A stretch of DNA of 64,000 bases from positions 4,512,001 to 4,576,000 of the forward strand of contig OZ242351.1 in the NCBI GenBank assembly GCA_965208675.1. The letters run 5' to 3'. The number at the start of each line of letters is the position of its first letter. The stretch's first letter is position 1. The DNA comes from Candidatus Poribacteria bacterium (GTDB taxonomy: Bacteria; Poribacteria; WGA-4E; PCPOR2b). The notes below the pieces were generated by a model. It did not search any database, had not been told where the DNA came from, and saw only the letters and a list, made by a program, of their open reading frames with translations. Below, piece by piece: positions 14,978-44,023 of this stretch. A program made the translations under genes and the position numbers.

Positions 14978-17170
14978 CTACTTCACAATCACCATCTGCC
15001 GCAACGCGCTGTAATCACCGGCGCGGAATTGATAGAAATAGGCACCGCTTGTGACGCGTTCGCCGTTTTGGTTCCGCCCGTCCCAATACGCTGCGTTCGT
15101 TTTGTCGCGGTAGATTCCGGACTTTTGATGTCCCATGTCCAGTGTTCGCACGATTTGGCCGCTCTGGTCGTAGATGTTTAAGGTCACGAGCGCATCGTTT
15201 GCCAACTGATACGGTATCCAGGTTTCGGGGTTGAACGGATTCGGAAAATTTTGAAGCAACGCTGTCCGTTTAATGTCTCCCAACGTAGTCAAGAAATTTC
15301 CCAACGGTTCCACGCTGACCCCAATGCCGGTATAAGCGTCAAGTTCCCAAAGCAACACGATTCCATCGTAACCCGAGCTAGCCAGGGTGCCTCCGTCAGG
15401 GCTGAATGCAAGGCTATGGACCCACAAGGAATGCCCAGGGAGCGAAGCTAGGAGTTCCCACGAATCGGTGTCCCAGAGACGAACCTTACCGTCGATACCT
15501 CCACTGGCGAGTGTGCGTCCGTCGGGACTGAACGCAAGGCTATTGACGGAATACGCATTCGGGATATTAAGGGTTCGCAGCAGTTCTCCCTTATCAACAT
15601 TCCACAATAAAATTGATTCCCTACCCCCGCTTGCGAGGGTGCTGCCTCCTGGGCTGAACGCAACGCTATAGAAAGGGCCTTTATGCTCATGCAGCTTGCG
15701 CAGTTGTTCTCCTGTATCTACGTCCCACAGAATAAGCGCCTCCCAACCCGCGCTTGCCAGCGTTCCGCCGTCGGGACTGAACGCCACGCTATTCAGATCG
15801 TGCATATCCACGGTGAGTGTATGCCTAGCGTTCCCAGCATCGGCGTCCCACAAACGTACGGTGTTGTCCCAACTTGCGCTTGCGATAATACTGCCGTCCG
15901 GACTGAACGCAATGTCTTTAATCGGAGCCGTATGACCCTCAAGCTTTAGCTGCTCTTCTCCGGTATCGGCGTCCCGCACACGGACCGTGTTGCCCCAACT
16001 CTCGCTGGCAATGGTTTCGCCGCCGGGGCTGTACGCAACGCTGACGCTACCACCAAAATCGCCATCGCCAAACGAGTGTCTGTGTTCTCCCGTTTCGGAG
16101 TCCCAAAGCCGGACAGCGTCCCCACTCGCACTTGCGACTGTGCCGCCGTCCGGGCTGAACGCGACTCTGTGAACTTGGGGGTAGTGTCCGGTGATAGTGC
16201 GTAGCAGTTTACCCGATTCGGCGTCCCACAGTCGGAAAGTCTGGTCATGGCTCAAACCGGCAATCGTGCGTCCGTCGGGACTAAATGTAAAGGTATAGCA
16301 CCAATGCGATTCGTTAAGGCGCCGCAACTCTTCTCCGGTTGCGGAGTTCCACAATCGGACAACTTGCCCTTCCGCGCTAGCAAGGATGCTCCCATCCGGA
16401 CTGAATGCGACTGAATCGACCGAACCCGAAGCGGAAAGTGTACGCAGATGTTGTCCGGTTGATGCGTCCCATAAACGGACAGTTCTGTCATTGCTGCCGC
16501 TAGCGAGGATGTTGCCATCCGGGCTGAACGCAACACTATACACGTACGCCGTATGCCCCTCGAACGTGCTTAAGAGGTCTCCAGTATCGGCGTCCCACAG
16601 GCCGATGGTTCGGTCTGCGCCCGCGCTAGCGATAATGCCGCTATCCGGGCTGAACGCTAAGGCGTTGACCCAACTCCCGTACCCGTTGAGCGTGCGAAGG
16701 TGTCTTCCCGTTTCCGCATCCCAAAGTTCAATATCTCGGTTCCCAGTTTCGCTTGCTATTGTGCGTCCATCGGGGCTGTACGCAAGGCTGTTGGCTGCGC
16801 CCGATCCTTTAATCGTTTGCAGATGTTTTCCCGTTGCGGCGTCCCACAATCGAATGTCATCGTTCCAACTTGCCCCGGCGATTGTGCTGCCATCGGGGCT
16901 AATAGCAATGCTGTCGACGTCCGTATTCCCGACAAACAGATTGGTTTCCTTATGAGTCGCCGTATCGTAGAGCCAAACACCGATTCCACTGGCGAGCGCG
17001 AGTCCGGTACCATCGGGCGTATAAGCAATTTCGTGTATCCGGCCTTGCCCAATGCGCAATTTGGCGCCTTCGGGAAGCCCCCATTGCAGAGAATGCTGGG
17101 CGTCACTTTGAGGTAAACACAGAGCGGCAACGAACAACAAGCTGAATTTGAAAACCAGTACCTTCTTCAT
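14978..17170 (-). CDS. Secreted 14-blade WD40 protein with FlgD-like/T9SS-like C-terminal domain (paralog 1)
   Basis: SD AGGAGG before ATG 17170, signal peptide, QWGLPEGAK cap, 14 (F/Y)SPDG-type repeats, then LLQNFPNPFNPETWIPYQL...YWDGRN. Confidence 0.9.
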   Translation of the reverse strand: MKKVLVFKFSLLFVAALCLPQSDAQHSLQWGLPEGAKLRIGQGRIHEIAYTPDGTGLALASGIGVWLYDTATHKETNLFVGNTDVDSIAISPDGSTIAGASWNDDIRLWDAATGKHLQTIKGSGAANSLAYSPDGRTIASETGNRDIELWDAETGRHLRTLNGYGSWVNALAFSPDSGIIASAGADRTIGLWDADTGDLLSTFEGHTAYVYSVAFSPDGNILASGSNDRTVRLWDASTGQHLRTLSASGSVDSVAFSPDGSILASAEGQVVRLWNSATGEELRRLNESHWCYTFTFSPDGRTIAGLSHDQTFRLWDAESGKLLRTITGHYPQVHRVAFSPDGGTVASASGDAVRLWDSETGEHRHSFGDGDFGGSVSVAYSPGGETIASESWGNTVRVRDADTGEEQLKLEGHTAPIKDIAFSPDGSIIASASWDNTVRLWDADAGNARHTLTVDMHDLNSVAFSPDGGTLASAGWEALILWDVDTGEQLRKLHEHKGPFYSVAFSPGGSTLASGGRESILLWNVDKGELLRTLNIPNAYSVNSLAFSPDGRTLASGGIDGKVRLWDTDSWELLASLPGHSLWVHSLAFSPDGGTLASSGYDGIVLLWELDAYTGIGVSVEPLGNFLTTLGDIKRTALLQNFPNPFNPETWIPYQLANDALVTLNIYDQSGQIVRTLDMGHQKSGIYRDKTNAAYWDGRNQNGERVTSGAYFYQFRAGDYSALRQMVIVK

Positions 17171-17472
17171 TGGAATTTTCCTCCTTGTTGAGTTCGCGGG
17201 GGCATCCCCGTGATTTCTACTTCCGGCGTACATCCCTTGTTTTAAAGCCTGGCTGAAGACGAAGAAAAAGTTACATGAACGGTTGGAGTTCGCGACTATT
17301 CATTTCAGAAGTTGATTCTAAACGAATTGAAGAAGGAAATTTAATCTGCTAGAGGAATGCCCGCAAGTTGCGAGATGTTCAGTTGGAACATCCGACTCCA
17401 CGCACTAGTTCCATTACAACGAAGGCAATCATGCAAACCTGTATCTGGTGCGATAGTACCATTTACACGTAA

Positions 17473-17501
17473 ATTATACACCATTAGGTGATTTACTTCA
17501 A
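17473..17501 (-). promoter_or_regulatory. Putative sigma70 promoter for WD40 paralog 1 and possibly the cytochrome
   Basis: - strand TTGAAG-N17-TATAAT. Confidence 0.55.
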
Positions 17502-17641
17502 CTGTGACGCGAAAAACCTAATGTATCAAGTCACGCGACAGTTTGAAATTCGTCATCTAGAGTGTTGGGTTTCGCACCAAGGTGCGCTGATTGAACAAAT
17601 CCTTTGAAGAATAACCGTGCGTCGTACCGTTCTGTTAGGCG

Positions 17642-19858
17642 TTACTTAACAATCGCCATTCGCTTAAGCGAGGAGTAATCACCCGCACGGAGTTGATAGT
17701 AATACGTGCCGCTTGTGACTCGTTCGCCATTTTGGTTGCGACCGTCCCAATACGCAGCGTTCTCTGTGTCTTGGTAGACACCCAATTTTTGATGTCCAAT
17801 TTCCAACCTGCGTACGATTCGGCCGCTCTGGTCGTAGATGTTCAAAGTCACGAGCGCATCGTCCGCCAACTGGTAAGGTATCCAGGTTTCGGGGTTGAAC
17901 GGATTCGGATAATTTTGCAGCAACGCGGTTCGTTTGATGTTGCCAATCGTTGTCAAGCGATTTCCCCTCGGTTCGACTCCAACTCCGATTGAAGTACCAA
18001 GGTCCCATAACAGTACGGTGCCGTCCCAACTCCCGCTGGCGAGCGTGCGTCCGTCGGGACCGAATTCCACACCATAGACCATATTGGTATGGCCGTCGAG
18101 CGTTCGGAGGTGTTTGCCGGTATCGACATCCCACAGGCGGATGGTACTGTCTCCGCTTCCGCTAACGAGAGTGCTGCCATCGGGGCTAAAATCAACGCTA
18201 TTGACCCAAAAGCCGTGCCCGGTAAGCGTACGGAGATATTCGCCGGTATCGACATTCCACAGGCGAATGGAATCGTCCCAACTTCCACTTGCAATTGTGC
18301 CTCCGTCGGGACTGAACGCAATGCTCTGAATTGACTGAGTGTGTCCCATAAGGACTCGCAGCCGTTCACCGTTATCGATGTCCCACAGTACGATAGTAGT
18401 TTTACCCCCGCTAGCGAGGATTTTACCGTCCGGGCTGTACGCAAGGCTTGAAACCCCAAACCTAGGGGTATGTACGCTCCTCCGCGTTCGTAAGAGTTCA
18501 CCGGTATCGGCATCCCAAATACGGACGGTATTGTCCAAACTCCCGCCGGCAATGTGACGTCCATCGGGGCTGAACGCCACGCCATAAATCGAATCCGTGT
18601 GCCCCATGAGCGTCCGAATGTGTTCGCCAGTAGCCGTATCCCACAGACGGATAGTTAGGTCCCGACTTCCGCTTGCGATGCGGCGTCCATCCGGACTGAA
18701 CACGACGTTCGTGACGTGCTTCTCATGCCCGGTAAGTGTGCGCAAGTGCTCGCCGGTATCGGCGGCCCATAAGCGAACGGTTTCATCTCCCCAACTCCCG
18801 CTGGCAACTGTTCCCCCGTCAGGACTAAACGCGACACTTCTGACGGAGCCCGTATACCCTGTCAGCGTTCCTAAGTGTTTGCCAGTAGCGGCATCCCACA
18901 CGCGGACGGTACCGTCCCAACTCCCGCTTGCCAGTGTGCGTCCATCGGGACTGTACGCAACAGTGCCAACCCAATCCGTGTGTCCGTTTAGCGTTCGCAG
19001 GTGTTCGCCTGTTATTGCGTCCCACAGGCGGATTGAATGGTCCCAGCTTCCGCTCGCAATGGTGCCGCCGTCGGGGCTGAACAAGGCACTATTGACCGAA
19101 TGCGTATGACCGCTTAGTGTTCGCATCCGTTTTCCCGTGTTCGCGTCCCACAGTAGGATGGAATTATCGTCACTACCGCTAACAATCGTATCACCGTCGG
19201 GACTGAACGAAACACTGTGGACCGGATTCGTGTGATCGTCTAGCGTTAGCAGGTGTTTTCCCGTAGACGTGTCCCATAGGCGGATGGTGGTATCTCTACT
19301 CCCGCTTGCGATGGTGCCGCCATCGGGACTGTACGAGACGATAATGACGTTGTCTGTATGCCCGCGGAGCGTATGCAGACTCTTTCCCGTTTCCGAGTCC
19401 CACAAATGGATGGTATTGTCGTAAGTCCCGCCTGCTAAAGTATCGCCGTTGGGACTGAACGAAACGTTAATCACCCAATCCCCATAGCCGTTCAGTGCTC
19501 TTAGGCGCTCTCCCGTTTCCACATCCCACATACTGAGGATGTCCACACCGTCACTCGCACTGGCAATTGTACCCCCGTCGGGACTGAACGAAAAACCGCT
19601 AATTCCTCCTGTATCCCCGGAAAGGAATGCGGCTTCTTTATGGGTTTCTGCATCGTAAAGCCATATTCCGATGCTGCTGGAAACTGCAAGTCGTTTGCCG
19701 TCTGGTGAATACTGTATTTCGCCTATCGAACCTCTACCCAGCCGCGCTATGGCGGTTTCGGGTAGATGCCATTGAAGAGAATCTTGGGCGTAGCTGAATG
19801 GTACACATAGCGCGGCAGCGAAGAAATAGTTAAGCTTGGAAATTATGGATTTTTTCAC
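17642..19858 (-). CDS. Secreted 14-blade WD40 protein with FlgD-like C-terminal domain (paralog 2)
   Basis: SD GAGGAGG before GTG 19858, QWHLPETA cap, 14 repeats and an LLQNYPNPFNPETW domain. Confidence 0.9.
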   Translation of the reverse strand: MKKSIISKLNYFFAAALCVPFSYAQDSLQWHLPETAIARLGRGSIGEIQYSPDGKRLAVSSSIGIWLYDAETHKEAAFLSGDTGGISGFSFSPDGGTIASASDGVDILSMWDVETGERLRALNGYGDWVINVSFSPNGDTLAGGTYDNTIHLWDSETGKSLHTLRGHTDNVIIVSYSPDGGTIASGSRDTTIRLWDTSTGKHLLTLDDHTNPVHSVSFSPDGDTIVSGSDDNSILLWDANTGKRMRTLSGHTHSVNSALFSPDGGTIASGSWDHSIRLWDAITGEHLRTLNGHTDWVGTVAYSPDGRTLASGSWDGTVRVWDAATGKHLGTLTGYTGSVRSVAFSPDGGTVASGSWGDETVRLWAADTGEHLRTLTGHEKHVTNVVFSPDGRRIASGSRDLTIRLWDTATGEHIRTLMGHTDSIYGVAFSPDGRHIAGGSLDNTVRIWDADTGELLRTRRSVHTPRFGVSSLAYSPDGKILASGGKTTIVLWDIDNGERLRVLMGHTQSIQSIAFSPDGGTIASGSWDDSIRLWNVDTGEYLRTLTGHGFWVNSVDFSPDGSTLVSGSGDSTIRLWDVDTGKHLRTLDGHTNMVYGVEFGPDGRTLASGSWDGTVLLWDLGTSIGVGVEPRGNRLTTIGNIKRTALLQNYPNPFNPETWIPYQLADDALVTLNIYDQSGRIVRRLEIGHQKLGVYQDTENAAYWDGRNQNGERVTSGTYYYQLRAGDYSSLKRMAIVK

Positions 19859-19969
19859 TGGAGTCCTCCTCAGATTTTGCGTTGTGCATCCAAAAAACAC
19901 TCGTTGTGTGTAACTTCAGACAACAATTTTTTTATAAATACCCGGATTATCACCTCCAATCGTCGTTTG

Positions 19970-22177
19970 CTATTTCACAATCACCATTTGCCTTAACGAC
20001 GTGTAATCACCGGCGCGAAATTGATAATAATACGTGCCGCTTGTGACCCGTTCTCCGCTATGATTGCGTCCATCCCAAAACGCTGCGCTTGCTCTGTCTC
20101 GGTAGACTCCCGATTTCTGATGCCCAATGTCGAGTGTGCGGACAACATGACCGCTATGGTCATAGATGTTCAGCGTCACGAGCGAATCGTTTGCCAACTG
20201 ATACGGTATCCAGGTTTCCGGGTTGAACGGATTCGGAAAATTTTGCAGCAGCGCTGTCCTCTTGATGTTTCCTAGCGTAGTGATTTGACTTTCCAATGGT
20301 TCTACCCCCAACGCAATTAAGGAGGTAAGGTCCCACAGCAACACGGTCCCGTCCAAACTTCCACTGACGAGCGCGCGTCCATTGGAATTGAACGCAACGC
20401 TCCGGACATCGTCCGTATGTCCGATTAAGGTAACCAGGTGTTGTCCAGAATTGGCTTCCCACAGCCGGACAGTATAGTCACCGCTTCCACTAGCGATAGT
20501 TTTGCCATCCGGACTGAACGCAACACTATTTACCCTAGCCTCGTGCCCGGTTAGCGTTCGCAGGTGTTTTCCACTATTAGTGTCCCAAAGACGGATGGTA
20601 GCGTCTGCACTCCCACTGGCGACGGTGCGTCCATCGGGGCTAAACGCAACGCTCCAAACCCAATCCGTATGTCCTTCAAGTGTTCGCAGAAGTCTTCCCG
20701 TAGCTGTTGCCCACAGACGGACTGTATGGTCCCCACCTCCGCTGGCGATACTGTGTCCATTTGGACTGAACGCAACGCTTTCCACTGGCGATGTGTGTCC
20801 ATTGAAGGTGCGCAGCCGTTTTCCGTTATTAGCGTCCCAGAGGTGTATAGAAGTGTCCGCGTTCCCGCTCGCGATTTTCTGTCCATCCTCGCTGAATGCA
20901 ACGCTTATCACCGCCAACGCATTGCCCTTAAGCGTCCGTAGGGGTTTTCCAGTATCGGTGGACCACAGTTGAATGGTATGGTCCCAACTTCCACTGGCGA
21001 TGGTGCCGCCGTTGGGACTAAACGCTACACTAGGAACCACCGATTTGTGCCCTTCTAGGGTTCGCAAGTGGTTTCCCGAATCGGGGTTCCACAAACGAAT
21101 GTATCGGTCATTACTCCCACTCGCAAGCGTATTGCTAATGGGATTGAACGCTACGCTAGTCACCGGCCTTGTATGCCCGGCGATTGTTCTCCGGAGTTCC
21201 CAGGTATCGGCGTCCCACAGACAAATTGTCCCGTCCAAACTCCCGCTGGCGAACATGCCGCCGTCGGAACTGAATGCGACGCTGTCGACCCAATGCGTAT
21301 GCCTGACGAGCGATCGAATGGGTTTCCCCGTATCCACTGCCCACAGCCGAATTGTGTCGTCCAAGCTGCCGCTGGCAATCATGAGTCCATCGGGACTGAA
21401 TTCTACGCAATCGACCATAGCATCATGTCCTAGGAGGGTTCGCAGGTGGTCACCGGTATCGGTGCTCCACAGGCGAATGGCATTGTCGCCGCCTCCGCTG
21501 GCAATAGTCCCGCCGTCCGGACTAAACGCTATACTCCGCACCGAATCCTCATGTCCTTTTACCCTCCAAAGGCGTTCCCCGGTGTCTACGTCCCACAGGC
21601 GAATTGAATTATCCGCACCTCCGCTCACGAGCATGCTGCCATCGGGGCTGAACGCGACACTATGAACCCAGGACGTGTTCCCAGTAAGCATTCTCGAATA
21701 ATCGCCGGTATCGGCGTCCCACAGTCGGATGGTACGGTCTCCGCTTCCGCTTGCGATAATATCCCCATTAGGGCTGAAGGCAACACTATTCACCGGACCC
21801 GTATGCCCTGTGAGCGTTTGCAGGTGATCGCCAGTATTGGCATCCCACATACGGACCGAACGGTCTTGACTCCCGCTGACAAGCCTACTGCCATCGGGGC
21901 TGAACACTACGCTCCAGACTCGACCCGTATGCCCGGTCAACAAGGCGACCTCTTGACGCGTCGCCGGGTTGTAGATCCAAATACCGATGCTGCTAGCCAC
22001 CGCAAGGCGCGTGCCGTTGGGGTAAAATTGTATTTCATTTATCCTGCCTTTACCCAGCCGCGTTTTAGCACCTTCAGGCAAGCCCCATTGGGGAAAATCA
22101 TGCGCGACGCTGTGTGATAGACAAAAAGCGGAAGCGAAAAAATATGCACTTAATTTGAAAAACAACGCTTTCTTCAT
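19970..22177 (-). CDS. Secreted 14-blade WD40 protein with FlgD-like C-terminal domain (paralog 3)
   Basis: Signal peptide, QWGLPEGAKTRLGKG cap, 14 GH...WD repeats and an LLQNFPNPFNPETW domain. Confidence 0.92.
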   Translation of the reverse strand: MKKALFFKLSAYFFASAFCLSHSVAHDFPQWGLPEGAKTRLGKGRINEIQFYPNGTRLAVASSIGIWIYNPATRQEVALLTGHTGRVWSVVFSPDGSRLVSGSQDRSVRMWDANTGDHLQTLTGHTGPVNSVAFSPNGDIIASGSGDRTIRLWDADTGDYSRMLTGNTSWVHSVAFSPDGSMLVSGGADNSIRLWDVDTGERLWRVKGHEDSVRSIAFSPDGGTIASGGGDNAIRLWSTDTGDHLRTLLGHDAMVDCVEFSPDGLMIASGSLDDTIRLWAVDTGKPIRSLVRHTHWVDSVAFSSDGGMFASGSLDGTICLWDADTWELRRTIAGHTRPVTSVAFNPISNTLASGSNDRYIRLWNPDSGNHLRTLEGHKSVVPSVAFSPNGGTIASGSWDHTIQLWSTDTGKPLRTLKGNALAVISVAFSEDGQKIASGNADTSIHLWDANNGKRLRTFNGHTSPVESVAFSPNGHSIASGGGDHTVRLWATATGRLLRTLEGHTDWVWSVAFSPDGRTVASGSADATIRLWDTNSGKHLRTLTGHEARVNSVAFSPDGKTIASGSGDYTVRLWEANSGQHLVTLIGHTDDVRSVAFNSNGRALVSGSLDGTVLLWDLTSLIALGVEPLESQITTLGNIKRTALLQNFPNPFNPETWIPYQLANDSLVTLNIYDHSGHVVRTLDIGHQKSGVYRDRASAAFWDGRNHSGERVTSGTYYYQFRAGDYTSLRQMVIVK

Positions 22178-22243: not shown

Positions 22244-24457
22244 CTACTTCACAATTAACATCCGCCGCGCCGCGGTGTAATCGCCTGCACGGAGTTGATA
22301 GTAATAGGCGCCGCTTGTGACGGGTTCTCCGTTTAGATTGCGGCCGTCCCAATACGCTGCGCTCTCTCTGTCGCGGTAGACTCCCGATTTTTGATGTCCA
22401 ATGTCGAGGGGGCGCACGATTCGGCCGCTTTGGTCGTAGATATTCAAGGTCACGAGCGCATCGTCCGCCAACTGGTAAGGTATCCAGGTTTCGGGGTTGA
22501 ACGGATTCGGATAATTTTGCAGCAACGCCGTCCGTTTGATGTTGCCCAACGCCGTGATGCGTCTTCCAATCGGTTCCACCTGATATGCACTTGTACCAGT
22601 AAAATCCCACAACAGCACGGTGCCATCCTCACTCCCGCTGGCCATTGTGAGGCCATCCGGACTGAAAGCAACGCTATAGACCAACGACAAATGTCCTTTG
22701 AGCTTTCGCAGGTGGTCGCCTGTTTCAGCGTCCCATAGACGGACGGTATGGTCCCAACCCCAACTGCCGCTGGCGAGCGTACCACCGCCGGGACTGTATT
22801 TTACGCTAAAGACCGGATACGGATGTCCGTTAATCTTTCGAAGCTGTTTGCCCGTATTAGCATCCCACAGACGGATAGTTTTGTCCCCACCCCCGCTCGC
22901 GATGGTGTGCCCATCCGGACTGAAAGCAACGCTCAAGACCGCAGACGTATGTCCCCTGATTGTGCGCACAAGTTTTACTCTATCCGCGTTCCACACGCGG
23001 ATTGTAGAGTCCACACTACCGCTGGCGAACGTGCGCCCGTCAGGACTGAACGACACGCTGCGGACCGGACCAGTGTGACCGGTGAGCGTTCGTAAGTGTT
23101 TTCCCGTATTAGCGTTCCATAGTCGAATGGTATTGTCCTCACTGCCGCTTGCAATCGTATCGCCGCCCGGACTAAACGCAACGCTCCAAATCGCAGACTC
23201 ATGTCCGGTGAGCGTGCGCAAGTGTTCCCCCGTATCGGTGTCCCACAGGCGGACGGTATTCTCCCAGCCATAACTTCCACTTGCGATCGTGCCGCCGTCC
23301 GGGCTGTACGCCACACTATAAATATCGCCCTCTTGACCGGTGAGCGTGCGCAGGAGTTCACCCGTATCGGCATCCCGCAATAGGATGGCGTTATTATCAG
23401 TGCCACTAGCGATAGTGCCCCCATCAGGGCTGAATATAACGCAAAAGACCGATGCCGTGTGACCAGTGAGCGTTCGTAGGTGTTCGCCTGAATCGGCGTT
23501 CCACAGACTGATGGAACCGTCCCGGCTCCCGCTTGCGATGGCGCCGCCATCAGGAGGGTACGCTACACTGATGACAGAATCGGTATGTCCTTCAAGCGTT
23601 TGCAGGAGTTCCCCCGTATTACCGTCCCAAGCTCGGATTATTACTCCGCCCGTACCTGTGATAGTGCTGCCATCAATACTAAACGCTACGCTGAGGACAG
23701 AACTCCCCTCCCCGCTGAGCTTGCGAAGGTGTTTTCCCGTGTTCGGTTCCCATAGACGGATGGTACCATCAAAACTTCCGCTTGCAATGGTACGGCCATC
23801 GGGGCTGTACGCTACGCAAATGACCGGCTCGGCATGCCGCTTGAGAACTCTCAGATGCTCTCCCGTTTTCGAATCCCACAGACGGATGGTGTTATCTCTA
23901 CTTCCGGTAGCGAGGGTGCGTCCATCCGGACTGAATGCAACGCTTTCGACTGAATCCGTATGCCCCTTTAGTTTGCGAAGGGTTTTGCCGGAGTCCGACT
24001 CCCACAGTCGGATAGTGCCGTCCCAACTCCCACTTGCGATGATGCGGCCATCCGGACTGAACGCAACGCTTTCAACAGAATCCGTATGCCCCTCGAGCTT
24101 GCGAAGGTGTTTTCCCGTATCAGCGTCCCATAGCCGGATTGTTGTGTCCCCACTGCCACTTGCGATGGTACGTCCATCCGGACTGAACGCAATACTCTCG
24201 ACCCTAAACTCATGCCCGGTAAACAGGGCAGCCTCCTGATGGGTCGCGGTATCGTAAAGCCAGATGCCAATAGTGCTGGCAACGGCGAGCTTAGTCCTGT
24301 CAGGAGAATACCGAATTTCACTTATCCAGCCTTTGCCGAGCCGCGATCTAGCACCGTCTGGTAAATCCCATTGTGCAAAATCTTGGGCGAGGCTGTGCGG
24401 TAGGCATAGAGCGCTAATCATCAGTAAGCTAAACTTAAAAACTGTTGCTTTCTTCAT
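22244..24457 (-). CDS. Secreted 14-blade WD40 protein with FlgD-like C-terminal domain (paralog 4)
   Basis: Same architecture as the other paralogs, 737 aa. Confidence 0.92.
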   Translation of the reverse strand: MKKATVFKFSLLMISALCLPHSLAQDFAQWDLPDGARSRLGKGWISEIRYSPDRTKLAVASTIGIWLYDTATHQEAALFTGHEFRVESIAFSPDGRTIASGSGDTTIRLWDADTGKHLRKLEGHTDSVESVAFSPDGRIIASGSWDGTIRLWESDSGKTLRKLKGHTDSVESVAFSPDGRTLATGSRDNTIRLWDSKTGEHLRVLKRHAEPVICVAYSPDGRTIASGSFDGTIRLWEPNTGKHLRKLSGEGSSVLSVAFSIDGSTITGTGGVIIRAWDGNTGELLQTLEGHTDSVISVAYPPDGGAIASGSRDGSISLWNADSGEHLRTLTGHTASVFCVIFSPDGGTIASGTDNNAILLRDADTGELLRTLTGQEGDIYSVAYSPDGGTIASGSYGWENTVRLWDTDTGEHLRTLTGHESAIWSVAFSPGGDTIASGSEDNTIRLWNANTGKHLRTLTGHTGPVRSVSFSPDGRTFASGSVDSTIRVWNADRVKLVRTIRGHTSAVLSVAFSPDGHTIASGGGDKTIRLWDANTGKQLRKINGHPYPVFSVKYSPGGGTLASGSWGWDHTVRLWDAETGDHLRKLKGHLSLVYSVAFSPDGLTMASGSEDGTVLLWDFTGTSAYQVEPIGRRITALGNIKRTALLQNYPNPFNPETWIPYQLADDALVTLNIYDQSGRIVRPLDIGHQKSGVYRDRESAAYWDGRNLNGEPVTSGAYYYQLRAGDYTAARRMLIVK

Positions 24458-24523: not shown

Positions 24524-26737
24524 CTATTTCACAATCACCATTTGCCTTAACGACGTGTAATCACCCGCGCGAAATTGATAATAATACGAGCCGCTTGTGA
24601 CGGGTTCTCCGTTTTGGTTGCGTCCATCCCAATACGCTGCGCTTGCTTTGTCTCGGTAGACTCCCAAGTTTTTATGTCCAATGTCGAGTGTGCGGACAAT
24701 ATGGCCGCTCTGGTTGTAGATGTTCAACGTCACGAGTGCATCGTCCCCCAACTGATACGGTATCCAGGTTTCGGGGTTGAACGGATTCGGAAAATTTTGC
24801 AGCAGCGCTGTCCGTTTGATTTTCCCCAGCGTCGTGGTGTGTTTTTCCGACAGTTCCACCTGGAAAGCGGTTGAAGAGGAGAGTTCCCACAGCAACACCG
24901 TCCCGTCCCCACTCCCGCTGGCAAGTGTGCGTCCATTGGGACTGAACGCAAGGCTTAAGATTTCACCTGAATGCCCTGCACGCACTTGCAGATTAATTCC
25001 CGTATTGATGTCCCACAAGCGAATGGTACAGTCCACACCGCTGCTGGCGAGTATTCGCCCGTTTGGGCTGAACGCGAGGCTTAAGACCCAATTCGTATGC
25101 CCTTTCAGCGTTCGCAGACGCATTCCGGTATCAGTGTCCCACAGACGGATGGTAAGGTCCCCACTTCCGCTAGCGAGCGTCCTGCTATCGGGACTGAATG
25201 CTACGCTCATAACCGAATTTGAATGTCCGTTGAGCGTTCGCAGGTGTTCTCCCGTATCTGGGTCCCATAGACGCACTGTAGTGTCGCGGCTGCCGCTAGC
25301 AATCGTCCCTCCGTCGGGGCTAAACGCAACAACTTCAATCTCGCTCTTATGCCCTATGAAGGTCATCAGCAGTTTTCCGGTATCGGTGTCCCGGAGCCGC
25401 ACTGTACCGTCGCGTCTCCCGCTGGCAGTTGTGCGTCCATCCGGACTGACCGCAACGCAATTGAACCCTATCCCTTGCCCGTCGTGGGTTCGCAGGTTTC
25501 TTCCGGTATTGGTGTGCCAGAGACTTATGGTATCGTCCGCACCTCCACTTGCGATAGTGCGTCCATCGGGACTAAATGCAACGCTATAAACGCTTAATGA
25601 ATGCCCCTTCAGCGTTCGCAGGTGTTTTCCCGTATCGGCATCCCGCAGTCGAATTGTAGGGATTTCACCGCTGTAAGCGATGATGCCGCTATCAGGACTA
25701 AACGCCACGCTATAGACCCCTAACGTATACCCTGTGAGGGTTTGTCGGTGTTTTCCGGTATTGGCGTCCCATAGACGGATCGTAGCGTCGTCGCTCCCAC
25801 TTGCGATGGTGCCGCCATCCGGACTGAACGCTACGGTATCAATTTCATCCTTATGACCTATGAGGGTTCGGCGGTGTTTTCCGGTATTAACGTCCCATAG
25901 GCCGATGGTATCGTCCCTACTCCCACTTGCGATGGTGCGACCATCTGGACTGAACGCCACACTATAGACGGCAGATTCATGTCCCGTAAGCGTTCGGCGG
26001 TGTTTTCCGGTATCGGAGTCCCACAGACGAATAGTCTTGTCCCAACTCCCGCTTGCGATGGTAAGTCCATCGGGGCTGTACACAACCTTTAAGATCCCAT
26101 CTTCATGCCCCCTGAGCGTTCGCAAGAGTTTTCCGGTATCGACGTCCCACAGTTGAATAGACTTATCCCCAATCGCACTAGCGATGGTACGTCCATCCAG
26201 ACTGAACGTAACACTAGCACGCAAACCCCCACCTATTCCTTCCCTGAGTATATGCAGGAGTCCTCCGGTGCGGGCGTTCCACAGACGGATACTGCCCAAA
26301 CCCGCACTAGCGATGGTGCGTCCATCTGGACTGAACGCAATACTAGAAATCCAATTGCTGTGGTTGAGCGTTCGAAAGGGTCTTCCCGTATCGGTGTCCC
26401 ACAGACGGATGGTATAGTCCCAACTCCCGCTAGCAATTGTGCGCCCATCCGGACTGAACGCAACGCATTTGACATAGTATGAGTGCCCGCTGATTAGGGC
26501 GACCTCTTGATAGGTCTCCGTATCGTAGAGCCAAATGCCGATGCTGCTTGCCACCGCAAGCTTAGTCCCGTCAGGCGAATACTGAAGTTCACTTATTTCC
26601 CCTTTACCGAAGCGCGCTTTAACACCGTCGGGCAGCCCCCATTGCGGTGAATCTTGGGCGACACCAATCGTAATCGGTAGAAGAAACAAAACTCCAATCA
26701 ACAGCGGGCACAGCTTGAAAACAATCGCGTTGTTCAT
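24524..26737 (-). CDS. Secreted 14-blade WD40 protein with FlgD-like C-terminal domain (paralog 5, first transcribed)
   Basis: Same architecture, 737 aa, SD GGAGG. Confidence 0.92.
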   Translation of the reverse strand: MNNAIVFKLCPLLIGVLFLLPITIGVAQDSPQWGLPDGVKARFGKGEISELQYSPDGTKLAVASSIGIWLYDTETYQEVALISGHSYYVKCVAFSPDGRTIASGSWDYTIRLWDTDTGRPFRTLNHSNWISSIAFSPDGRTIASAGLGSIRLWNARTGGLLHILREGIGGGLRASVTFSLDGRTIASAIGDKSIQLWDVDTGKLLRTLRGHEDGILKVVYSPDGLTIASGSWDKTIRLWDSDTGKHRRTLTGHESAVYSVAFSPDGRTIASGSRDDTIGLWDVNTGKHRRTLIGHKDEIDTVAFSPDGGTIASGSDDATIRLWDANTGKHRQTLTGYTLGVYSVAFSPDSGIIAYSGEIPTIRLRDADTGKHLRTLKGHSLSVYSVAFSPDGRTIASGGADDTISLWHTNTGRNLRTHDGQGIGFNCVAVSPDGRTTASGRRDGTVRLRDTDTGKLLMTFIGHKSEIEVVAFSPDGGTIASGSRDTTVRLWDPDTGEHLRTLNGHSNSVMSVAFSPDSRTLASGSGDLTIRLWDTDTGMRLRTLKGHTNWVLSLAFSPNGRILASSGVDCTIRLWDINTGINLQVRAGHSGEILSLAFSPNGRTLASGSGDGTVLLWELSSSTAFQVELSEKHTTTLGKIKRTALLQNFPNPFNPETWIPYQLGDDALVTLNIYNQSGHIVRTLDIGHKNLGVYRDKASAAYWDGRNQNGEPVTSGSYYYQFRAGDYTSLRQMVIVK

Positions 26738-28683: not shown

Positions 28684-28883
28684 AAGCCTTGCCTCCGCTT
28701 TACAATTTAAATTTCACGGCAGTCGCCGTTTACCTAGAAAACTACTGAGAACCAATTGGAATAGGAAATTAACTAGAGTCGAGTGTTGTGCTGTAGCTCA
28801 ATTTCACTTGTACGCCGCACCATTTCTGGTGAGGCATGCAGCAGGTTGAATTATCCGTGTGATTGGCGAACGAACCGGAACGC

Positions 28884-29430
28884 CTACTTAACCCTGCCAA
28901 TTTTGGCGGCTTCTGGCGCCCGCGTCGGCAAATTCTGCTTAGCCAGCTGATCTTCCGGGATATAGTTGGAGTAATCAGAAATTTTACCGTGGGTCAATGA
29001 GTAAACAACAACGTTTGTCATAAACCGATATACGCCTGGAGAGTAGTGCACGGACCGCGTCGGTAGGCTGACCGCCTCCATCGCGCACATATAATCACGG
29101 CGGACCAGCAGCACCGAAAGCTTTTCGCCGACGGAGATTCCTTCAAGGAAATTCCGCTTCGGCGGCTGTGTGCCAAACCAGAAGATATCGAACCCGACCG
29201 GCGGTCCGCCCATCTCGTAGAAGTTGTTATAGACCTCATGGTCATTGGGAATCCGTTCCAACTGATATTCCGGCATCACATAGCGCATTTGAGCCATGAA
29301 TATGCGAACGGTGGCTTGAGCCGCCCGATTTACGCCGCAATCATCGAATATGAGGACTCCCCCCCTGTCCACAAGGTATCGCCGCAATCCTGCCGCTTCC
29401 GGTTCAGTAAACCTGCTGTTCAGCGTAGTG
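28884..29430 (-). pseudogene. 5'-truncated duplicate of the DUF4159-like gene
   Basis: Matches only the C-terminal ~180 aa of 30719-32191 (FTEPEAAGLRRYLVDRGG...PTRAPEAAKIG). Homology ends at ~29430, next to the 3' flank of the PD40 copy, and the TM anchor and start are missing. Confidence 0.8.
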
Positions 29431-30528: not shown

Positions 30529-30718
30529 AAGTCTTGCCTCCTCTTTACAATTTGAAAATTCACGGCAAACGCCGTTTATCTAAAAACTTCCCGAGAACCA
30601 ATTGGAATAGTAAATTAATTTGTATCCAGTGTTGTGCTGCAGCTTAATTTCGCTTGTACGCTGCGCTCTCATGTAACTTATATGTACAGCCGCGCAATCT
30701 CTGGACGAGCCGTAGTGC

Positions 30719-32269: not shown

Positions 32270-33298
32270 TTATTCTGGCCTGTAAATCCCTGTGCCTAGC
32301 TGTTTAATCCAACTCCAGGTCAAGGGGCGCTTTTTGCCGGGCGATACTGCATACGGCACAACAAAGTCCGGGTCAAACCAATCCGGAGAACGGCTGCCTT
32401 GCCATTCTGCGCCAAGCGGCAAGACTTTTCCATCTGCACGTACATCGTCGACAACCTTATCTGAATCCATCACGGCAATTTCCACAAACGGAGCATCTGA
32501 CAGGACGAGCATTGTTCCATCGGGAGACCACGCCGGGTCAAAGTTACATCGCGGCCCAGGCGTGAGGTTTTTCACGTTTTCACCGTTGGCGTCCATGGTG
32601 TGCAGATCGCCCGTCCCATTGCGCCTAGATGTCCAGACAATCTTTTGGCTGTTCGGCGACCAACGGGGATAGCTGTCATCGCCGCGGTGGTTAGTCAAAT
32701 TCAAGGGGTTTTCACCACTCGCATTCATCGTGTATACGTCTGAAATAGTTCTACCCCGCTTGGAAGCGAAGGCAATCATTCGACCGTCGGATGACCAATC
32801 AGGTTGCCTGTCGGGAGCAGCGTCGTTAGTCAGGTTCACCCCGACGTTCCCGTTAGCTGTCAATGTGTAGATTTCGTAATTGCCATCCCGATTGGTGGTG
32901 AACACAAGCCGTTGTCCGCTAGGATGCCACGTGGGCCAACTATCCTCGGCTTCATGGTTGGTCAGTCTCTTGAGCTTCTCGCCATCGGCGTTAACCACGT
33001 AGATATCAATGTTGCCGTCCAACTTGGTATGGAACGCCACCTTTTGTCCATCTGGCGACCACCTAACCCCTAACGGCTGTTCGTCCGCTTTAAGCCGTAA
33101 ATCAATTAACGGACGAAGATTTGCACTGTCGGGGTCCATCAGCCAAAGGTCGCCTTCCGGTTGGCTGCTCGAAAACACAATGGTCGGATCCTCGGGTGCC
33201 CGCTGTGCGTCAGCGCCTGCCGCAAAAATCATGCTGCCAAAAAGGAACGTAATCACTGAAAATACAAACCGTGTTGTGAATGGTAATCTATGTTGCAT
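32270..33298 (-). CDS. Secreted TolB-like PD40 beta-propeller protein
   Basis: Signal peptide, PD40 repeats and tail YAVSPGKKRPLTWSWIK. Confidence 0.88.
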   Translation of the reverse strand: MQHRLPFTTRFVFSVITFLFGSMIFAAGADAQRAPEDPTIVFSSSQPEGDLWLMDPDSANLRPLIDLRLKADEQPLGVRWSPDGQKVAFHTKLDGNIDIYVVNADGEKLKRLTNHEAEDSWPTWHPSGQRLVFTTNRDGNYEIYTLTANGNVGVNLTNDAAPDRQPDWSSDGRMIAFASKRGRTISDVYTMNASGENPLNLTNHRGDDSYPRWSPNSQKIVWTSRRNGTGDLHTMDANGENVKNLTPGPRCNFDPAWSPDGTMLVLSDAPFVEIAVMDSDKVVDDVRADGKVLPLGAEWQGSRSPDWFDPDFVVPYAVSPGKKRPLTWSWIKQLGTGIYRPE

Positions 33299-35476: not shown

Positions 35477-36529
35477 TCAGTCGCGCGGCCCTAAATTTTT
35501 TATCCATCCCCACGTAAGCGGGCGCTTGTCAGCAGGCTCAACATCGAATGGCGGCGCTGGAAATGCGGGGTCGAACCAAGCTGGAGACCGGGCGCGCCTG
35601 CCTTTATCTAGCACAAGAATCTGTATGAAATTTTTCGCCGCCTTGAGGTCCGCTTCGAGCGTTTCTCCAACGCCAAGCTCGTCTACTGCGTGGTAAAGGA
35701 AGATGCCTTGCGGGAATGACAGGGAGGCGATGCTTTTGCCGTCTGGAGACCATGTAGCATCCTTCTTCTCCTCGGTGCTCTTTACCCACCGCTGATTTTC
35801 GCCATCCGAATCAATGATGTAGACGTCACCCGTGCCGTCTCGCCGGGATACCCACGCCAATGTTTCACCGTCAGGCGACCACCTCGGTTGAATATCCTGG
35901 CCTTTATGATTGGTGATATTCTGCAGATTTTCGCCTTTCGAATCCATCACATAGATATCTGCAATCGTGCGGCCTCGCTTGGTCGAAAACGCAATCTTTC
36001 GACCGTCAGGCGACCAAGACGGGTCAATATCGGGCGCAGCGTCTGCTGTGAGGTTTCCGCCGACATTGCCTTGCGCCGTCATGGTGTAGATTTCAAAATT
36101 CCCGTCACGGTTGGTGGCGAACGCCAGTTTTTGACCGCTCGGATGCCACGTGGGCGAGCTGTCTTCCGCCTCATGCTCGGTAAGCCTCCGCAAATTTTTC
36201 CCGTCGGCGTTCACGGAATATACGTCAATGTTGTCCTTCAAGTTAGTATGGAAAGCCAACATTTCACCGGTTGGGGACCATACCAAGCCCGCCGGCACCG
36301 GCTCGCCGTCAATTTCTAATACCAAGAAAGGAGGGTTTACACCTGCCGGATCCATTGACCAGATGCCTACTTCGCCCGCCACACCGTCGGTGCCCACGAC
36401 TATCGTTGGCACGATTGGTGCTTGAGCCTGCCCGCTCTGGAGCGTAGCAAAACAGTTAATGAGAAGCACGCCGATGAACACGACCGGCATGAATATGTCC
36501 CGAATCTGAAGGTTTTGTCGGATTTGCAT
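35477..36529 (-). CDS. Secreted TolB-like PD40 beta-propeller protein
   Basis: SD GAGGTG before ATG 36529, PD40 repeats and tail FDVEPADKRPLTWGWIK. Confidence 0.87.
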   Translation of the reverse strand: MQIRQNLQIRDIFMPVVFIGVLLINCFATLQSGQAQAPIVPTIVVGTDGVAGEVGIWSMDPAGVNPPFLVLEIDGEPVPAGLVWSPTGEMLAFHTNLKDNIDVYSVNADGKNLRRLTEHEAEDSSPTWHPSGQKLAFATNRDGNFEIYTMTAQGNVGGNLTADAAPDIDPSWSPDGRKIAFSTKRGRTIADIYVMDSKGENLQNITNHKGQDIQPRWSPDGETLAWVSRRDGTGDVYIIDSDGENQRWVKSTEEKKDATWSPDGKSIASLSFPQGIFLYHAVDELGVGETLEADLKAAKNFIQILVLDKGRRARSPAWFDPAFPAPPFDVEPADKRPLTWGWIKNLGPRD

Positions 36530-36681
36530 GGTTATCACCTCATCGTGTTGGTTAAGGTTTATGGACAATCGCTAAGTGAATCCGGGAAGACGAATTCCTC
36601 GGCGCATTTACGCTCGGTATTGCCTGTGAAAACTCGACCGGTTTTTAGCCTGTTGAAACACGCGGTGAAGGCGGTTAAATA

Positions 36682-39235: not shown

Positions 39236-39246
39236 CGTTTTACCGT

Positions 39247-40577: not shown

Positions 40578-41459
40578 CTATCTGCGGGTTTTTATATCCC
40601 CCCATGTTGTGGACAGTTTTTCAACCGGTGCAAAACCGAGCGCAGTCGTAACGCCAAGCCCATCATTCATGATCGCCGCGATTTCCGCCCCGCTCAATAC
40701 CCGGCTGAATACCCCGATATCGTCCACTGTAACCTGTGCGGAAGAGCCATACCTGCCGCAAATATGCCAAGGACCGTGTTCATCGGTCCGAACAAACGGT
40801 TCCGTTCCGGGACCGCGATTGACAATTTGACCATTCTGGTATATCACTGTCTCTTTGCCATTTCCCGTAAAGGCGTAGTGGTTCATCTCGGCGCCGTTTG
40901 CGGGAAACCGCCAATGATGGTCCTGGGGAGGCTTGCCGTATTGCCACATCATAAACTCGCCCTCGCCGTCATCCCACGGAAAGTGAACCAGAATTCGGTT
41001 GTCCCACGGCCCGCCGGGCTCAAATGAGAAGAGATCTTTTTGGGCAAAGCTGTCGATTTTGTCGTTTCGCTGCACCCATGCGGTTATTGAAATCTCTGTC
41101 TCGTCGGGAAGATTGCCGGCATTCGCATCGTCTTCGTCAGGCCCTAACCGCTCATCCTTGATGAAGTTTGGGACTATGATAACGCTGCCCTCGCCTTCAC
41201 ATTTCAGAGCCGTGCCGAATTTGCCGTCAACCCACGACGGCCTTAGCGCATCGCTGTCAGGACGATTACCTTGCAGTCTGCCGTCCATGTCGTGGGGGTT
41301 GCCCGACGCGTCATTGGCAGTGACTCCTTCCCCCTCATCAAATAGCCAAACGGCAATAATGTCGTCGGGGTCGAGTGCGGCATGAGTCGGGGCTGTCACC
41401 ATAATCCCAAACAATGAAACGGCGCTGACGCATACCAGCGTTTTTAGCATGAGTTTCAA
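40578..41459 (-). CDS. Secreted LamG/concanavalin A-like jellyroll protein (paralog 1)
   Basis: WLFDEGEG, WVDGKFGTAL, ITAWV, DDIGVFSRVL; tail APVEKLSTTWGDIK. TTG start at 41459 after GGAGG, aligned with paralog 2. Confidence 0.85.
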   Translation of the reverse strand: MKLMLKTLVCVSAVSLFGIMVTAPTHAALDPDDIIAVWLFDEGEGVTANDASGNPHDMDGRLQGNRPDSDALRPSWVDGKFGTALKCEGEGSVIIVPNFIKDERLGPDEDDANAGNLPDETEISITAWVQRNDKIDSFAQKDLFSFEPGGPWDNRILVHFPWDDGEGEFMMWQYGKPPQDHHWRFPANGAEMNHYAFTGNGKETVIYQNGQIVNRGPGTEPFVRTDEHGPWHICGRYGSSAQVTVDDIGVFSRVLSGAEIAAIMNDGLGVTTALGFAPVEKLSTTWGDIKTRR

Positions 41460-41649
41460 TTTGCATTTCCTCCATCTACAGCCGGTACGGTATAGGATGG
41501 CCGAATGCTGCCGCTGTAGAAAAACCCATCCCGTATACCTGTACGCGGCGAGTTTTTCAAATATTGAATCTACATACAACGGCGCCAGTTGCTAAACTGC
41601 AAGCAAAACACCACTCGCGCCGTTGTGGTTATGCGTAGCAATCTCTTAG

Positions 41650-42534
41650 CTAATTTTTGGTTTTTATCACCCCCCATGTTGTTGATATTTTTTCATCCGG
41701 TTGAACATCAAGAGCCGCCGCGGCGGCAAGCCCGTCGAGCATGATAGATGCAATTTCACCTTGGGTCAATACCCGGCTAAATACGCCGATGTCGTCCACT
41801 GTAACCTGAGCGGAAGAGCCAAACCTGCCGCAAATATGCCATGGACCGTGTTCATCGGTCCGAATAAACGGCCTCGATCCGGGACCGTGATGCACCATTT
41901 TACCATTCTGGTAAATCACTGTGGCTTCGCTATTGCCGGTAAATGCGTAGTGGTTCATCTCGCCGCCGTTTGCGGGAAACTCCCACGGATTGTCGAAGTC
42001 AGGTCTGCCGTATTGCCACATTATAAACTCGCCCTCTCCGTCATCCCACGGAAAGTGCACCAGAATCCGGTTGTCCCACGGCCCGCCGGGTTGGAACGAA
42101 AAGAGGTCTCTCTGAGCCGCCGTGCCGATTTCATCGTTGCGCTGCACCCATGCGGTTATGGTAATCTCCGTCTCGTCGGGAATATTGCCGGCAGACGCAT
42201 CGTGTTCGTGGCGTCCCAATCGCTCATCCTTGATGAAATTCGGGATGACGATAACGCTGCCCATACCTTCACATTTCAGGGCCGTGCCGAATTTTCCGTC
42301 TACCCACTTCGGTTTTTCGCCGGCGTTGTGCGCCCGCTTGGTGACTTCCAACCTACCGTCCATGTCGAGCGGGTTTCCCGAAGCGTCGTTGGCAGTGCCG
42401 CCTGCGCCCTCATCGAATAGCCAAATTGCAATGATGTCGGCGGGGTCTAGGACGGCGAAAACCGGGATTATAACGATAAACCCGAACAATGAAACAGTGG
42501 CGGCGCATGCCAGTGCCTTTAGCATAGACTTCAT
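41650..42534 (-). CDS. Secreted LamG-like jellyroll protein (paralog 2)
   Basis: Same motifs; tail DVQPDEKISTTWGVIK. Confidence 0.87.
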   Translation of the reverse strand: MKSMLKALACAATVSLFGFIVIIPVFAVLDPADIIAIWLFDEGAGGTANDASGNPLDMDGRLEVTKRAHNAGEKPKWVDGKFGTALKCEGMGSVIVIPNFIKDERLGRHEHDASAGNIPDETEITITAWVQRNDEIGTAAQRDLFSFQPGGPWDNRILVHFPWDDGEGEFIMWQYGRPDFDNPWEFPANGGEMNHYAFTGNSEATVIYQNGKMVHHGPGSRPFIRTDEHGPWHICGRFGSSAQVTVDDIGVFSRVLTQGEIASIMLDGLAAAAALDVQPDEKISTTWGVIKTKN

Positions 42535-42960: not shown

Positions 42961-43009
42961 TAAGAGAATGTATATATAGAATAAATTGCGGCCTTAATCA
43001 CGTCCACTA

Positions 43010-43047
43010 AAGAAAAACCCGCCCTACACACGTGCAGGACGGGTTGT
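43010..43047 (-). terminator. Rho-independent terminator after LamG paralog 3
   Basis: - strand CCCGTCCTGCA-CGTG-TGTAGGGCGGG hairpin with G-U pairs, followed by TTTTTCTTT. Confidence 0.7.
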
Positions 43048-43141
43048 TTTGGAAATCACCTTTGCTGAAGCGCCGCGAGCTGCTAAGCGTATTCACGTTC
43101 ATTACTCACAGTGCTTGAGTTTTAGACACGACAACGCAAAG

Positions 43142-44023
43142 CTATTTGGGAGACGACTTAATTTCTCCCCATGTTGTCGATAATTTTTCAGCCGGTTCAA
43201 CACCGAGGGCTGCAATTGCGAGTCCTTTCTGCTGAATGGACGCGATTTCGTCATCGCTAAGAACTCGGCTGAACACCCCAACGTCATCGACTATAACTTG
43301 AGCCGAGGAACCGAACCTTCCGCCGATGTGCCAAGGACCGTGTTCGACGGTTCGAACAAACGGTTTTGCACCGGCGCCCAGATGGACAAATTCGCCATTC
43401 TGGTATATGACAGTCTCTTCACCGTTGCCGGTAAAGGCGTAGTGGTTCATTTCGCCGCCGTTCCCGGGAAATTCCCAGTTGGTGCCTTGGAACGGTTTAC
43501 CATACTGCCACATAATAAACTCGCCTGCTCCGTCATCCCAGGGGAAGTGGACCAAAATTCGGTTATCCCATGGACCGCCGGGCTCATATGAAAACAGGTC
43601 TTTTTGCGCCGCGCTGCCGAGTTTATCCAGCCGCTGCACCCAAGCCGTAATGGTAATGGTTGTTTCATCGGGAAGATTTCCGGCAGCTTCATCCTCTTCA
43701 TCAGGACCTAAACGCTCGTCCTTGTTGAAATTCGGGATATTGATTACACTGCCTGCACCTTCGCATTTCAAGGCTTTGCCGAACTTGCCGTCAACCCATT
43801 GAGGTCTCAGGTTATCGCTGTCGTTGGCGCCGCCTTCAAGCGTGCCGTCCATGCTCTTGGGGTTGTCCGACGAATCTACGGTCTTATTGCCCTCACCTTC
43901 GTCAAACAGCCAAATAGCGACAATGTCAGCGGGGTCAAGTGCCGCATTGGTTGGGACCGCAACCAATAGCCCGCTCAATGCAACAGCGCTGACAAATGCC
44001 AGTATTTTTAGCGTCGGTTTCAT
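43142..44023 (-). CDS. Secreted LamG-like jellyroll protein (paralog 3)
   Basis: SD AAGGAGG before ATG 44023; tail GVEPAEKLSTTWGEIK. Confidence 0.87.
   Translation of the reverse strand: MKPTLKILAFVSAVALSGLLVAVPTNAALDPADIVAIWLFDEGEGNKTVDSSDNPKSMDGTLEGGANDSDNLRPQWVDGKFGKALKCEGAGSVINIPNFNKDERLGPDEEDEAAGNLPDETTITITAWVQRLDKLGSAAQKDLFSYEPGGPWDNRILVHFPWDDGAGEFIMWQYGKPFQGTNWEFPGNGGEMNHYAFTGNGEETVIYQNGEFVHLGAGAKPFVRTVEHGPWHIGGRFGSSAQVIVDDVGVFSRVLSDDEIASIQQKGLAIAALGVEPAEKLSTTWGEIKSSPK

Follow-up and report, generated by a model that had tools for sequence, protein, structure and literature searches.

Short C-terminal signatures that recur on otherwise unrelated exported proteins of a restricted lineage are best known from the PEP-CTERM/exosortase, LPXTG/sortase and GlyGly-CTERM/rhombosortase systems. 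A larger portable element, the type A C-terminal domain (CTD) of the type IX secretion system (T9SS; TIGR04183 Por_Secre_tail/PF18962), sits at the C-terminus of Sec-exported, beta-rich cargo of many families, and in dockerin–cohesin systems a C-terminal add-on docks many extracellular proteins and enzymes on a common partner. Conserved C-terminal residues are also found in the Braun lipoprotein, whose C-terminal Lys is read by L,D-transpeptidases, and in outer-membrane proteins, whose beta-signal is read by BamA/BamD. Here we report on a 64,000-nucleotide window of the genome of a sponge symbiont of the phylum Poribacteria (positions 4,512,001-4,576,000 of a one-contig genome of 4.89 Mb, 49% G+C and an estimated completeness of 96.4%), in which 12 proteins share a short motif. 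This motif is an undescribed portable C-terminal tag of exported beta-rich binding modules that belong to many unrelated folds. The tag has likenesses to each of the systems above and shares with the PEP-CTERM, LPXTG and GlyGly-CTERM type the further feature of a signature, here V-x-P, followed by basic residues. Most likely it is recognised in trans and serves as a sorting, anchoring or processing tag. Coordinates prefixed C1 refer to the genome and all others to the window.

The original prediction, made from the letters of the window, had described a motif common to 12 secreted proteins of three passenger families. On re-reading the window, all 12 motifs were found where they had been placed, on the minus strand. 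In the seven LamG and PD40 proteins the motif lies close to the stop codon, being followed by 8, 8, 10 and 6 residues in the PD40 proteins and by 3, 3 and 4 residues in the LamG proteins. In the five WD40 open reading frames (ORFs) it is internal: the 15-mer leaves 96 residues to the stop and stands ahead of a FlgD-Ig-like domain. An N-terminal signal-like sequence is present in 12 of 12, in some only if translation is taken to start at a Met inside the longest ORF. The neighbouring TPR, ASPIC/FG-GAP and FGE-sulfatase ORFs of the window gave zero motif matches, as did the DUF4159 ORFs that lie between the carriers.

In order to establish how far the motif extends, a profile was built from the 12 instances and iterated on the 18,352 ORFs of at least 60 amino acids in the whole genome. 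At a threshold of E<0.05 it matched 135 ORFs, and none in the reversed-ORF control at the same threshold, so that the carriers reach far beyond the 12 proteins and three families first noticed. The predicted C-terminal position was also borne out: between the end of the motif and the stop, 119 of the 135 matches have 1-20 residues (1-10 residues in 116, and 15, 16 and 20 residues in the other three), and the remaining 16 all have exactly 96 and carry the motif right in front of a T9SS type A CTD. A set of 157 ORFs was obtained by adding 22 borderline matches picked for the right position; having been chosen in this way, these 22 lend no support to the positional claim. Out of 3,836 gene-like ORFs, defined as non-overlapping ORFs of at least 90 amino acids, 3.5% (135) to 4.1% (157) carry the tag. 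Within this gene-like set, the last 25 residues contain the core W-[GA]-x-[ILVM]-K 135 times and all other positions contain it 19 times, so that its density is approximately 96-fold higher near the C-terminus.

The consensus of the tag spans about 17 residues, [LF]-[AS]-V-x-P-x-G-K-L-[AT]-T-T-W-[GA]-x-[IL]-K, and is followed by 1-10 variable residues that are mainly polar or basic. In the set of 157 ORFs the conserved columns hold V in 150, P in 120, K in 119, W in 138 and either G (112) or A (39), the penultimate conserved column is I, L, V or M in 155, and the last position is Lys in 155 and Arg in two. This final Lys is never the C-terminal residue in the 135 profile matches; the extension beyond it varies in length, is most commonly three residues long (47 ORFs) and consists mostly of R, T, A, Q, S or K. 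All four codons are used at the conserved V, P, T and G positions and both codons at Lys. Since synonymous codons vary freely at conserved positions, it is the peptide, rather than a DNA element, that is under selection, and a DNA or RNA element at the ends of these genes was ruled out on the same ground.

The carriers fall into at least nine Pfam passenger families (Laminin_G_3, PD40, WD40, FG-GAP_2, Big_5, 3keto-disac_hyd, Cohesin, HmuY and DUF3108-like), and three of the carriers tested had no Pfam match. BLAST clustering grouped them into 79 LamG-like proteins of about 260 amino acids, 57 PD40/WD40 propellers and, for the rest, about ten small groups. Under stricter clustering the LamG family comprises 81 members, of which 77 were flagged for the tag; two of the four unflagged members have degenerate tails and one of the other two bears a lipoprotein-like signal instead. 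The expected association with export was recovered: among carriers of at least 150 amino acids, 147 of 154 have a strongly hydrophobic N-terminal segment, versus 1,135 of 3,008 other gene-like ORFs. Lipobox-like signals, as detected with a crude pattern, are depleted among carriers (7/150 versus 157/1,284; odds ratio 0.35, p=0.004).

Structure prediction places the tag outside the fold of the LamG and WD40 passengers modelled. In an AlphaFold2 model of a LamG protein, computed from a 37-row alignment (mean predicted local distance difference test score, pLDDT, 70.6), residues 258-272 form a helix at the end of the jelly roll, and the tag residues 276-294 that come after it have pLDDT values below 50. 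The model resembles lectin-like jelly rolls such as the trans-sialidase lectin domain and the carbohydrate-binding domain of a GH43 arabinanase. A second model, of the last 178 residues of a WD40 protein (17 rows, mean pLDDT 81.6), shows the tag (residues 68-82) between the last propeller blade and the CTD; residues 69-80 are below 50, in comparison with block means of 87-95 for CTD residues 101-170. From these models, the tag is predicted to be a free linear peptide in its LamG and WD40 contexts. It is strongly cationic, with a net charge of +2.67, counted from its first conserved Lys onwards, versus +0.30 for other C-termini, and its beta-periodic moment is somewhat raised (0.369 versus 0.278). 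A complex prediction that combined a WD40 propeller (residues 26-622) with a LamG tail (residues 252-294) scored 0.01 and weighs neither way, and a protein atlas search with the tail alone gave a best score of 0.84, which is under the level of a lead.

All Poribacteria sampled share the tag as a conserved peptide. A strict pattern searched at the DNA level, T-T-W-G-x-[ILFM]-K, was found in 174 of 176 Poribacteria species genomes, mostly at 10-80 matches per genome, with 0-1 for a reversed control pattern. The two genomes without a strict match contain 30 and 32 LamG matches, and variant tails, in which A replaces G and one or both T, were present in four of four loci read, so that these genomes were rejected as negatives. 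The atlas clusters nearest to the LamG protein are likewise commonest in Poribacteria. In a scan of GTDB with one genome for each of 185,579 species, the matches listed comprised at least 133 stretches; 72 of 80 listed rows were titled Poribacteria, and 129 of the 133 matches run into a stop codon within 10 codons. The matches read as chance were single ones in a Synechococcus record, an 'uncultured bacterium' record and one further locus, all with no nearby stop, and another in a Mycoplasmopsis record that has a stop directly after it. The tag is phylum-specific. A 1.9-Mb sponge metagenome-assembled genome labelled Pseudomonadota holds five strict matches on four contigs; two of these loci were read and have non-LamG passengers, and contamination and gene transfer were not told apart.

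None of the C-terminal signals introduced above accounts for the tag. No Pfam or NCBIfam model covers it, so the motif does not correspond to an already characterised sorting model, and full-text literature searches on Poribacteria returned no description of it. In the PEP-CTERM type a transmembrane helix lies between the signature and the basic cluster, whereas the tag has about eight residues from Pro to last Lys and a hydrophobicity of about 0; exosortase (PF09721) gave no matches at E<=0.01 in the genome. Sortase (PF04203) had no matches in the genome either, and the tag is without the hydrophobic C-terminal segment of LPXTG proteins. GlyGly-CTERM proteins have a Gly-Gly motif followed by a transmembrane helix, and the tag has no such helix; the best rhombosortase (TIGR03902) match in the genome reached 53.7 bits versus a cut-off of 84, and this model also matches in all 14 control genomes. 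Dockerins offer an analogy for the working mode favoured below, but they are calcium-binding domains of about 70 amino acids, unlike the tag, and no scaffold with repeated receptor domains was found; one tag carrier itself contains a cohesin domain. The Lys of Braun-type attachment is the last residue, in contrast to that of the tag, and the beta-signal read by the BAM complex ends in an aromatic residue whereas the last residues of the tag are variable, polar or basic.

The T9SS CTD and the tag occur together in part of the carriers. The CTD is a folded beta-sandwich of 70-100 amino acids, whereas the tag is a stretch of 15-18 residues that is disordered in the LamG model and in the WD40 model. 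The tag of the WD40 proteins stands three residues ahead of the start of the T9SS type A/FlgD-Ig-like domain, and a T9SS-type domain also begins three residues after the tag in FG-GAP proteins. A genome scan with TIGR04183 at its 23-bit cut-off placed four of the five WD40 ORFs of the window above the cut-off; the fifth scored 20.9 bits, and 23.4 bits with its neighbours in frame. The match runs through the 93 residues after the tag and does not include the tag itself. Six tail-only proteins of the window (three PD40 and three LamG) were scanned, and none matched TIGR04183 at E<=0.1. The genome contains 60 CTD matches; among 51 proteins with a CTD start motif, 19 were flagged by the tag profile, three more are tail-like by eye and 29 have other sequences before the CTD. 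In other Poribacteria, seven tail-plus-CTD proteins were present among 120 matches, and two of the seven keep the W of the tag. A W-to-L switch, in which the tag would be redundant beside a CTD, had been considered as all CTD-linked tails here carry L, I, M or F, and was rejected on account of these two proteins. A second conserved element, a helix-like stretch ending in P-K-E-T at the CTD start, replaces the tag before many poribacterial CTDs (examples at C1:2215847-2218360 and C1:3803378-3810710).

Earlier work bears on this part of the system. Kamke et al. (2014; PMC3909097) describe many poribacterial repeat proteins, WD40 foremost, as carrying TIGR04183, and report Por structural genes as not found; the short tail does not appear in the relevant passages of that paper.

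We favour the reading in which the tag is a non-covalent docking or retention peptide, to which we tentatively assign a probability of about 0.4. It is preferred because the conserved stretch is long (15-17 residues), disordered and rich in beta-formers, and because no matching enzyme family stands out. One shared envelope component would read the tag in trans, probably in an extended, beta-strand-like conformation, and non-covalent docking would keep the lectin-like and propeller proteins tethered to the envelope, probably at the surface. The tag would then serve in place of a lipid anchor or of attachment through the CTD, and for WD40 and FG-GAP cargo, removal of the T9SS-type domain would expose the same tail at a new C-terminus. 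Several observations weigh against docking. A Lys that is never terminal and is followed by variable residues fits a cleavage site at least as well. The tail-only proteins are without a recognised signal for crossing the outer membrane, so that their surface location is an assumption, and the depletion of lipoboxes depends on the crude pattern that was used. The models that place the tail outside the fold cover two of the three passenger families of the window, LamG and WD40. Finally, analysis of the neighbours of tag genes returned multi-copy families only, with zero single-copy partners and no candidate reader.

Cleavage is the main alternative, although we consider it less likely. It supposes cleavage behind the invariant Lys by a PorU-type C25 peptidase (the 'T9SS sortase') or a different protease of the envelope, with loss of the stub of 1-10 residues or of the whole T9SS domain and covalent linkage of the new C-terminus to a surface anchor. 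In Bacteroidota, T9SS cargo is cut at the boundary where the CTD starts. Such processing would account for a Lys that is almost invariant (with Arg as its sole substitute in the 157 ORFs) and that has at least one residue after it in all 135 profile matches, for the variable length of the extension, and for the identity of the modal three-residue extension with the gap between this Lys and the first CTD strand in the WD40 proteins. W-type tails directly before CTDs, as in the two proteins of other Poribacteria mentioned above, also agree with it. Moreover, the genome encodes two PorU-like proteins of about 2,000 amino acids that contain Propeptide_C25, Peptidase_C25 and a CTD of their own (C1:4189040-4195087 and C1:3854386-3860562). 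One of the two reaches 427.7 bits versus the PorU cut-off of 420, and its catalytic His and Cys align with those of PorU (6za2) and gingipain R (1cvr). At the site aligned to Asp163 of gingipain R this poribacterial protein has Glu and P. gingivalis PorU has Asp, a comparison of the S1 pocket that is uninformative. On the other side, the 29 of 51 CTD proteins without a tail-like segment before the CTD indicate that CTD processing does not require the tag, the tail-only proteins do not have the CTD that brings cargo to PorU, and fifteen conserved upstream residues are long for a protease site.

A bolder proposal, for which we see a rather small chance, combines elements of docking and cleavage. 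It holds that Poribacteria operate a T9SS-linked display system in which most clients have no CTD, and that the tag is the handle for the PorU-like C25 enzymes or for a dedicated outer-membrane receptor. If this were true, each cell would capture over 100 proteins of lectin-like and propeller type via the tag and possibly cut them after the invariant Lys, ligating or docking them into a dense, cellulosome-like binding coat, and this coat would form the interface of the symbiont with the sponge matrix.

It is less probable again that the tag is itself the signal for export across the outer membrane, either as a minimal substitute for the T9SS CTD or as a signal for another translocon, for example a secretin. 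The carriers include modules of usually extracellular kinds (cohesin, HmuY, Big_5 and lectin-like domains), and candidate translocon parts are present. A SprA/Sov-like protein of 2,130 amino acids (C1:3218107-3224499) has counterparts in 41 of 41 sampled Poribacteria genomes, there are ten PorV-like barrels of about 310-380 amino acids that end in an aromatic residue (for example at C1 179307-180242, 2043729-2044682, 3045565-3046704, 4410921-4411859 and 4419762-4420856), and two secretins are found in the genome. Several of the PorV-like barrels directly adjoin large CTD-bearing proteins, an arrangement that resembles the pairing of cargo genes with PorP/SprF in Bacteroidota. The SprA-like and PorV-like matches both lie under their curated cut-offs, however, with 160.5 bits versus 200 and 100.6 versus 250, respectively. 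As for further T9SS core genes in the genome, a PorP-like match reached 31.6 bits versus 90.55, there is no convincing GldM in the genome (best 16.4 bits versus 180), and the GldK model scored 110.4 bits versus 350 on FGE-sulfatase-type proteins, one of which is an ORF of the window. Against an export role, proteins that already have a CTD retain the tag, known T9SS signals are folded domains of 70-100 amino acids, and type II secretion has, to our knowledge, no linear signal.

The tag could also be a passive linker, in other words the conserved stretch before a T9SS-type domain that was left behind when the domain was lost and that has no sorting role of its own. Tail-only proteins mostly end three residues after the Lys, at the position where a CTD would start, and AlphaFold2 treats the tail as a linker. 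A remnant of this kind would be expected to decay, but V, P, K, W, G/A and K hardly vary among the 157 ORFs across unrelated families, these residues are kept throughout the phylum despite free synonymous change, and LamG relatives with only 26-34% identity to the window protein retain the tail. We find this explanation slightly more doubtful than an export signal.

The original prediction had left room for an amphipathic anchoring peptide, and this is the part of it that found no support, whereas its view of an undescribed, portable C-terminal tag was upheld: none of the three findings that would have spoken against it was made, as the carriers are exported, the tag lies outside the two folds modelled and no Pfam or NCBIfam model covers it. 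An amphipathic helix inserted in a membrane leaflet, as in the tails of PBP5 or MinD, would suit the Lys residues that flank a Leu/Trp/Ile cluster and the confirmed lack of a transmembrane segment. Yet the helical hydrophobic moment of the tag is 0.28 versus 0.297 for the background, about 47% of background 10-mers score at least as high as the tail median, the mean hydrophobicity is close to 0, and neither AlphaFold2 model (LamG or WD40 fragment) contains a confident helix in the tag; the helix was rejected on its hydrophobic moment and is very improbable. Least credible of all is an integral strand of each passenger fold, such as the closure strand of a propeller: the TolB alignment of PD40 covers residues 79-259 only and leaves the last 80 residues outside, which would allow such a strand, but one peptide is found on at least nine Pfam families and is modelled with low confidence outside the LamG and WD40 folds.

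The 12 carriers of the window, all on the minus strand and with other ORFs between them, are given here one by one. The first WD40 protein (14978..17233, 751 amino acids) has a signal-like N-terminus, the tag 15-mer at residues 641-655 (15269..15313), in which L replaces W and which ends 96 residues before the stop, and then the T9SS type A/FlgD-Ig-like CTD as its last 93 residues (14981..15259). The same order of tag and CTD is seen in the second (17642..19900, 752 amino acids; tag at residues 642-656, 17933..17977; CTD 17645..17923), the third (19970..22177, 735 amino acids; tag at 625-639, 20261..20305; CTD 19973..20251) and the fourth (22244..24457, 737 amino acids; tag at 627-641, 22535..22579; CTD 22247..22525). 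The fifth (24524..26737, 737 amino acids) supplied the C-terminal fragment of 178 residues that was folded by AlphaFold2; its tag (residues 627-641, 24815..24859) is the low-confidence linker of that model, and its CTD (24527..24805) has block mean pLDDT values of 73-95 over fragment residues 81-178.

The four PD40 propeller proteins comprise 346 amino acids with the tag at residues 324-338 and eight residues after it (27643..28683; tag 27670..27714), 348 amino acids with the tag at 326-340 and again eight residues (29482..30528; tag 29509..29553), 342 amino acids with the tag at 318-332 and ten residues (32270..33298; tag 32303..32347), and 363 amino acids as the longest ORF with the tag at 343-357 and six residues (35477..36568; tag 35498..35542). 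The products of the first two are 90.5% identical, and window positions 27643-32191 represent a recent tandem duplication in which a DUF4159 gene comes after each of these PD40-tag genes; one of the two DUF4159 genes retains just the last 167 amino acids, with 82% identity to the full copy of 490 amino acids. Among the LamG proteins, the Laminin_G_3 protein encoded at 40578..41579 probably has its true start at an internal Met before the signal peptide, and carries the tag at residues 316-330 (40590..40634) plus three residues. The modelled LamG protein of 294 amino acids (41650..42534) has the tag at 277-291 (41662..41706) plus three residues, and the last one, of 317 amino acids as the longest ORF (43142..44095), has it at 299-313 (43157..43201) plus four.

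At lower window coordinates, an exported multihaem cytochrome c with paired CXXCH motifs, cytochrome c7-like, adjoins the WD40 array (13946-14881). An IS630-family transposase at 12991-13833, broken into two ORFs that hold the HTH_Tnp_IS630 part and the DDE_3 part, lies between a DUF6785 gene and this cytochrome/WD40 array.

Over the whole genome, the tag genes are grouped in 68 clusters, the largest of nine genes. PhyH dioxygenases are enriched in their vicinity, with 27 of 81 within three genes (p=8e-8), and weaker enrichment was seen for SDR, TPR, VWA, DUF6785/DUF6784 membrane proteins and ASPIC/FG-GAP proteins. These neighbouring families suggest that the tagged proteins belong to substrate-capture loci. 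Large paralogous families surround the tag genes, namely the 81 PhyH-like dioxygenases and 24 DUF6785/DUF6784 membrane proteins of about 640 amino acids; one member of the latter is encoded at window positions 10761-12689, and some adjoin PorV-like barrels. Elsewhere, at C1:4145219-4161154, five tandem genes encode proteins of about 920-970 amino acids, none with the tag. One of them was scanned and consists of an ECF sigma-70 region fused to a PD40 propeller, and the other four are its relatives by BLAST family, with similar N-termini.

Many sponge microbiomes are dominated by the phylum that carries the tag, no member of which has been cultured. As a rule, tags of this type lead back to a single dedicated machine. 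Its discovery would show how these symbionts arrange their large complement of lectin-like, propeller and 'eukaryote-like' repeat proteins, the proposed mediators of contact with the host matrix and with food polymers. It would also extend the list of known C-terminal signals by one that has no membrane-spanning segment. For practical use, the tag provides a cheap marker with which to predict the exported binding proteome of any poribacterial genome.

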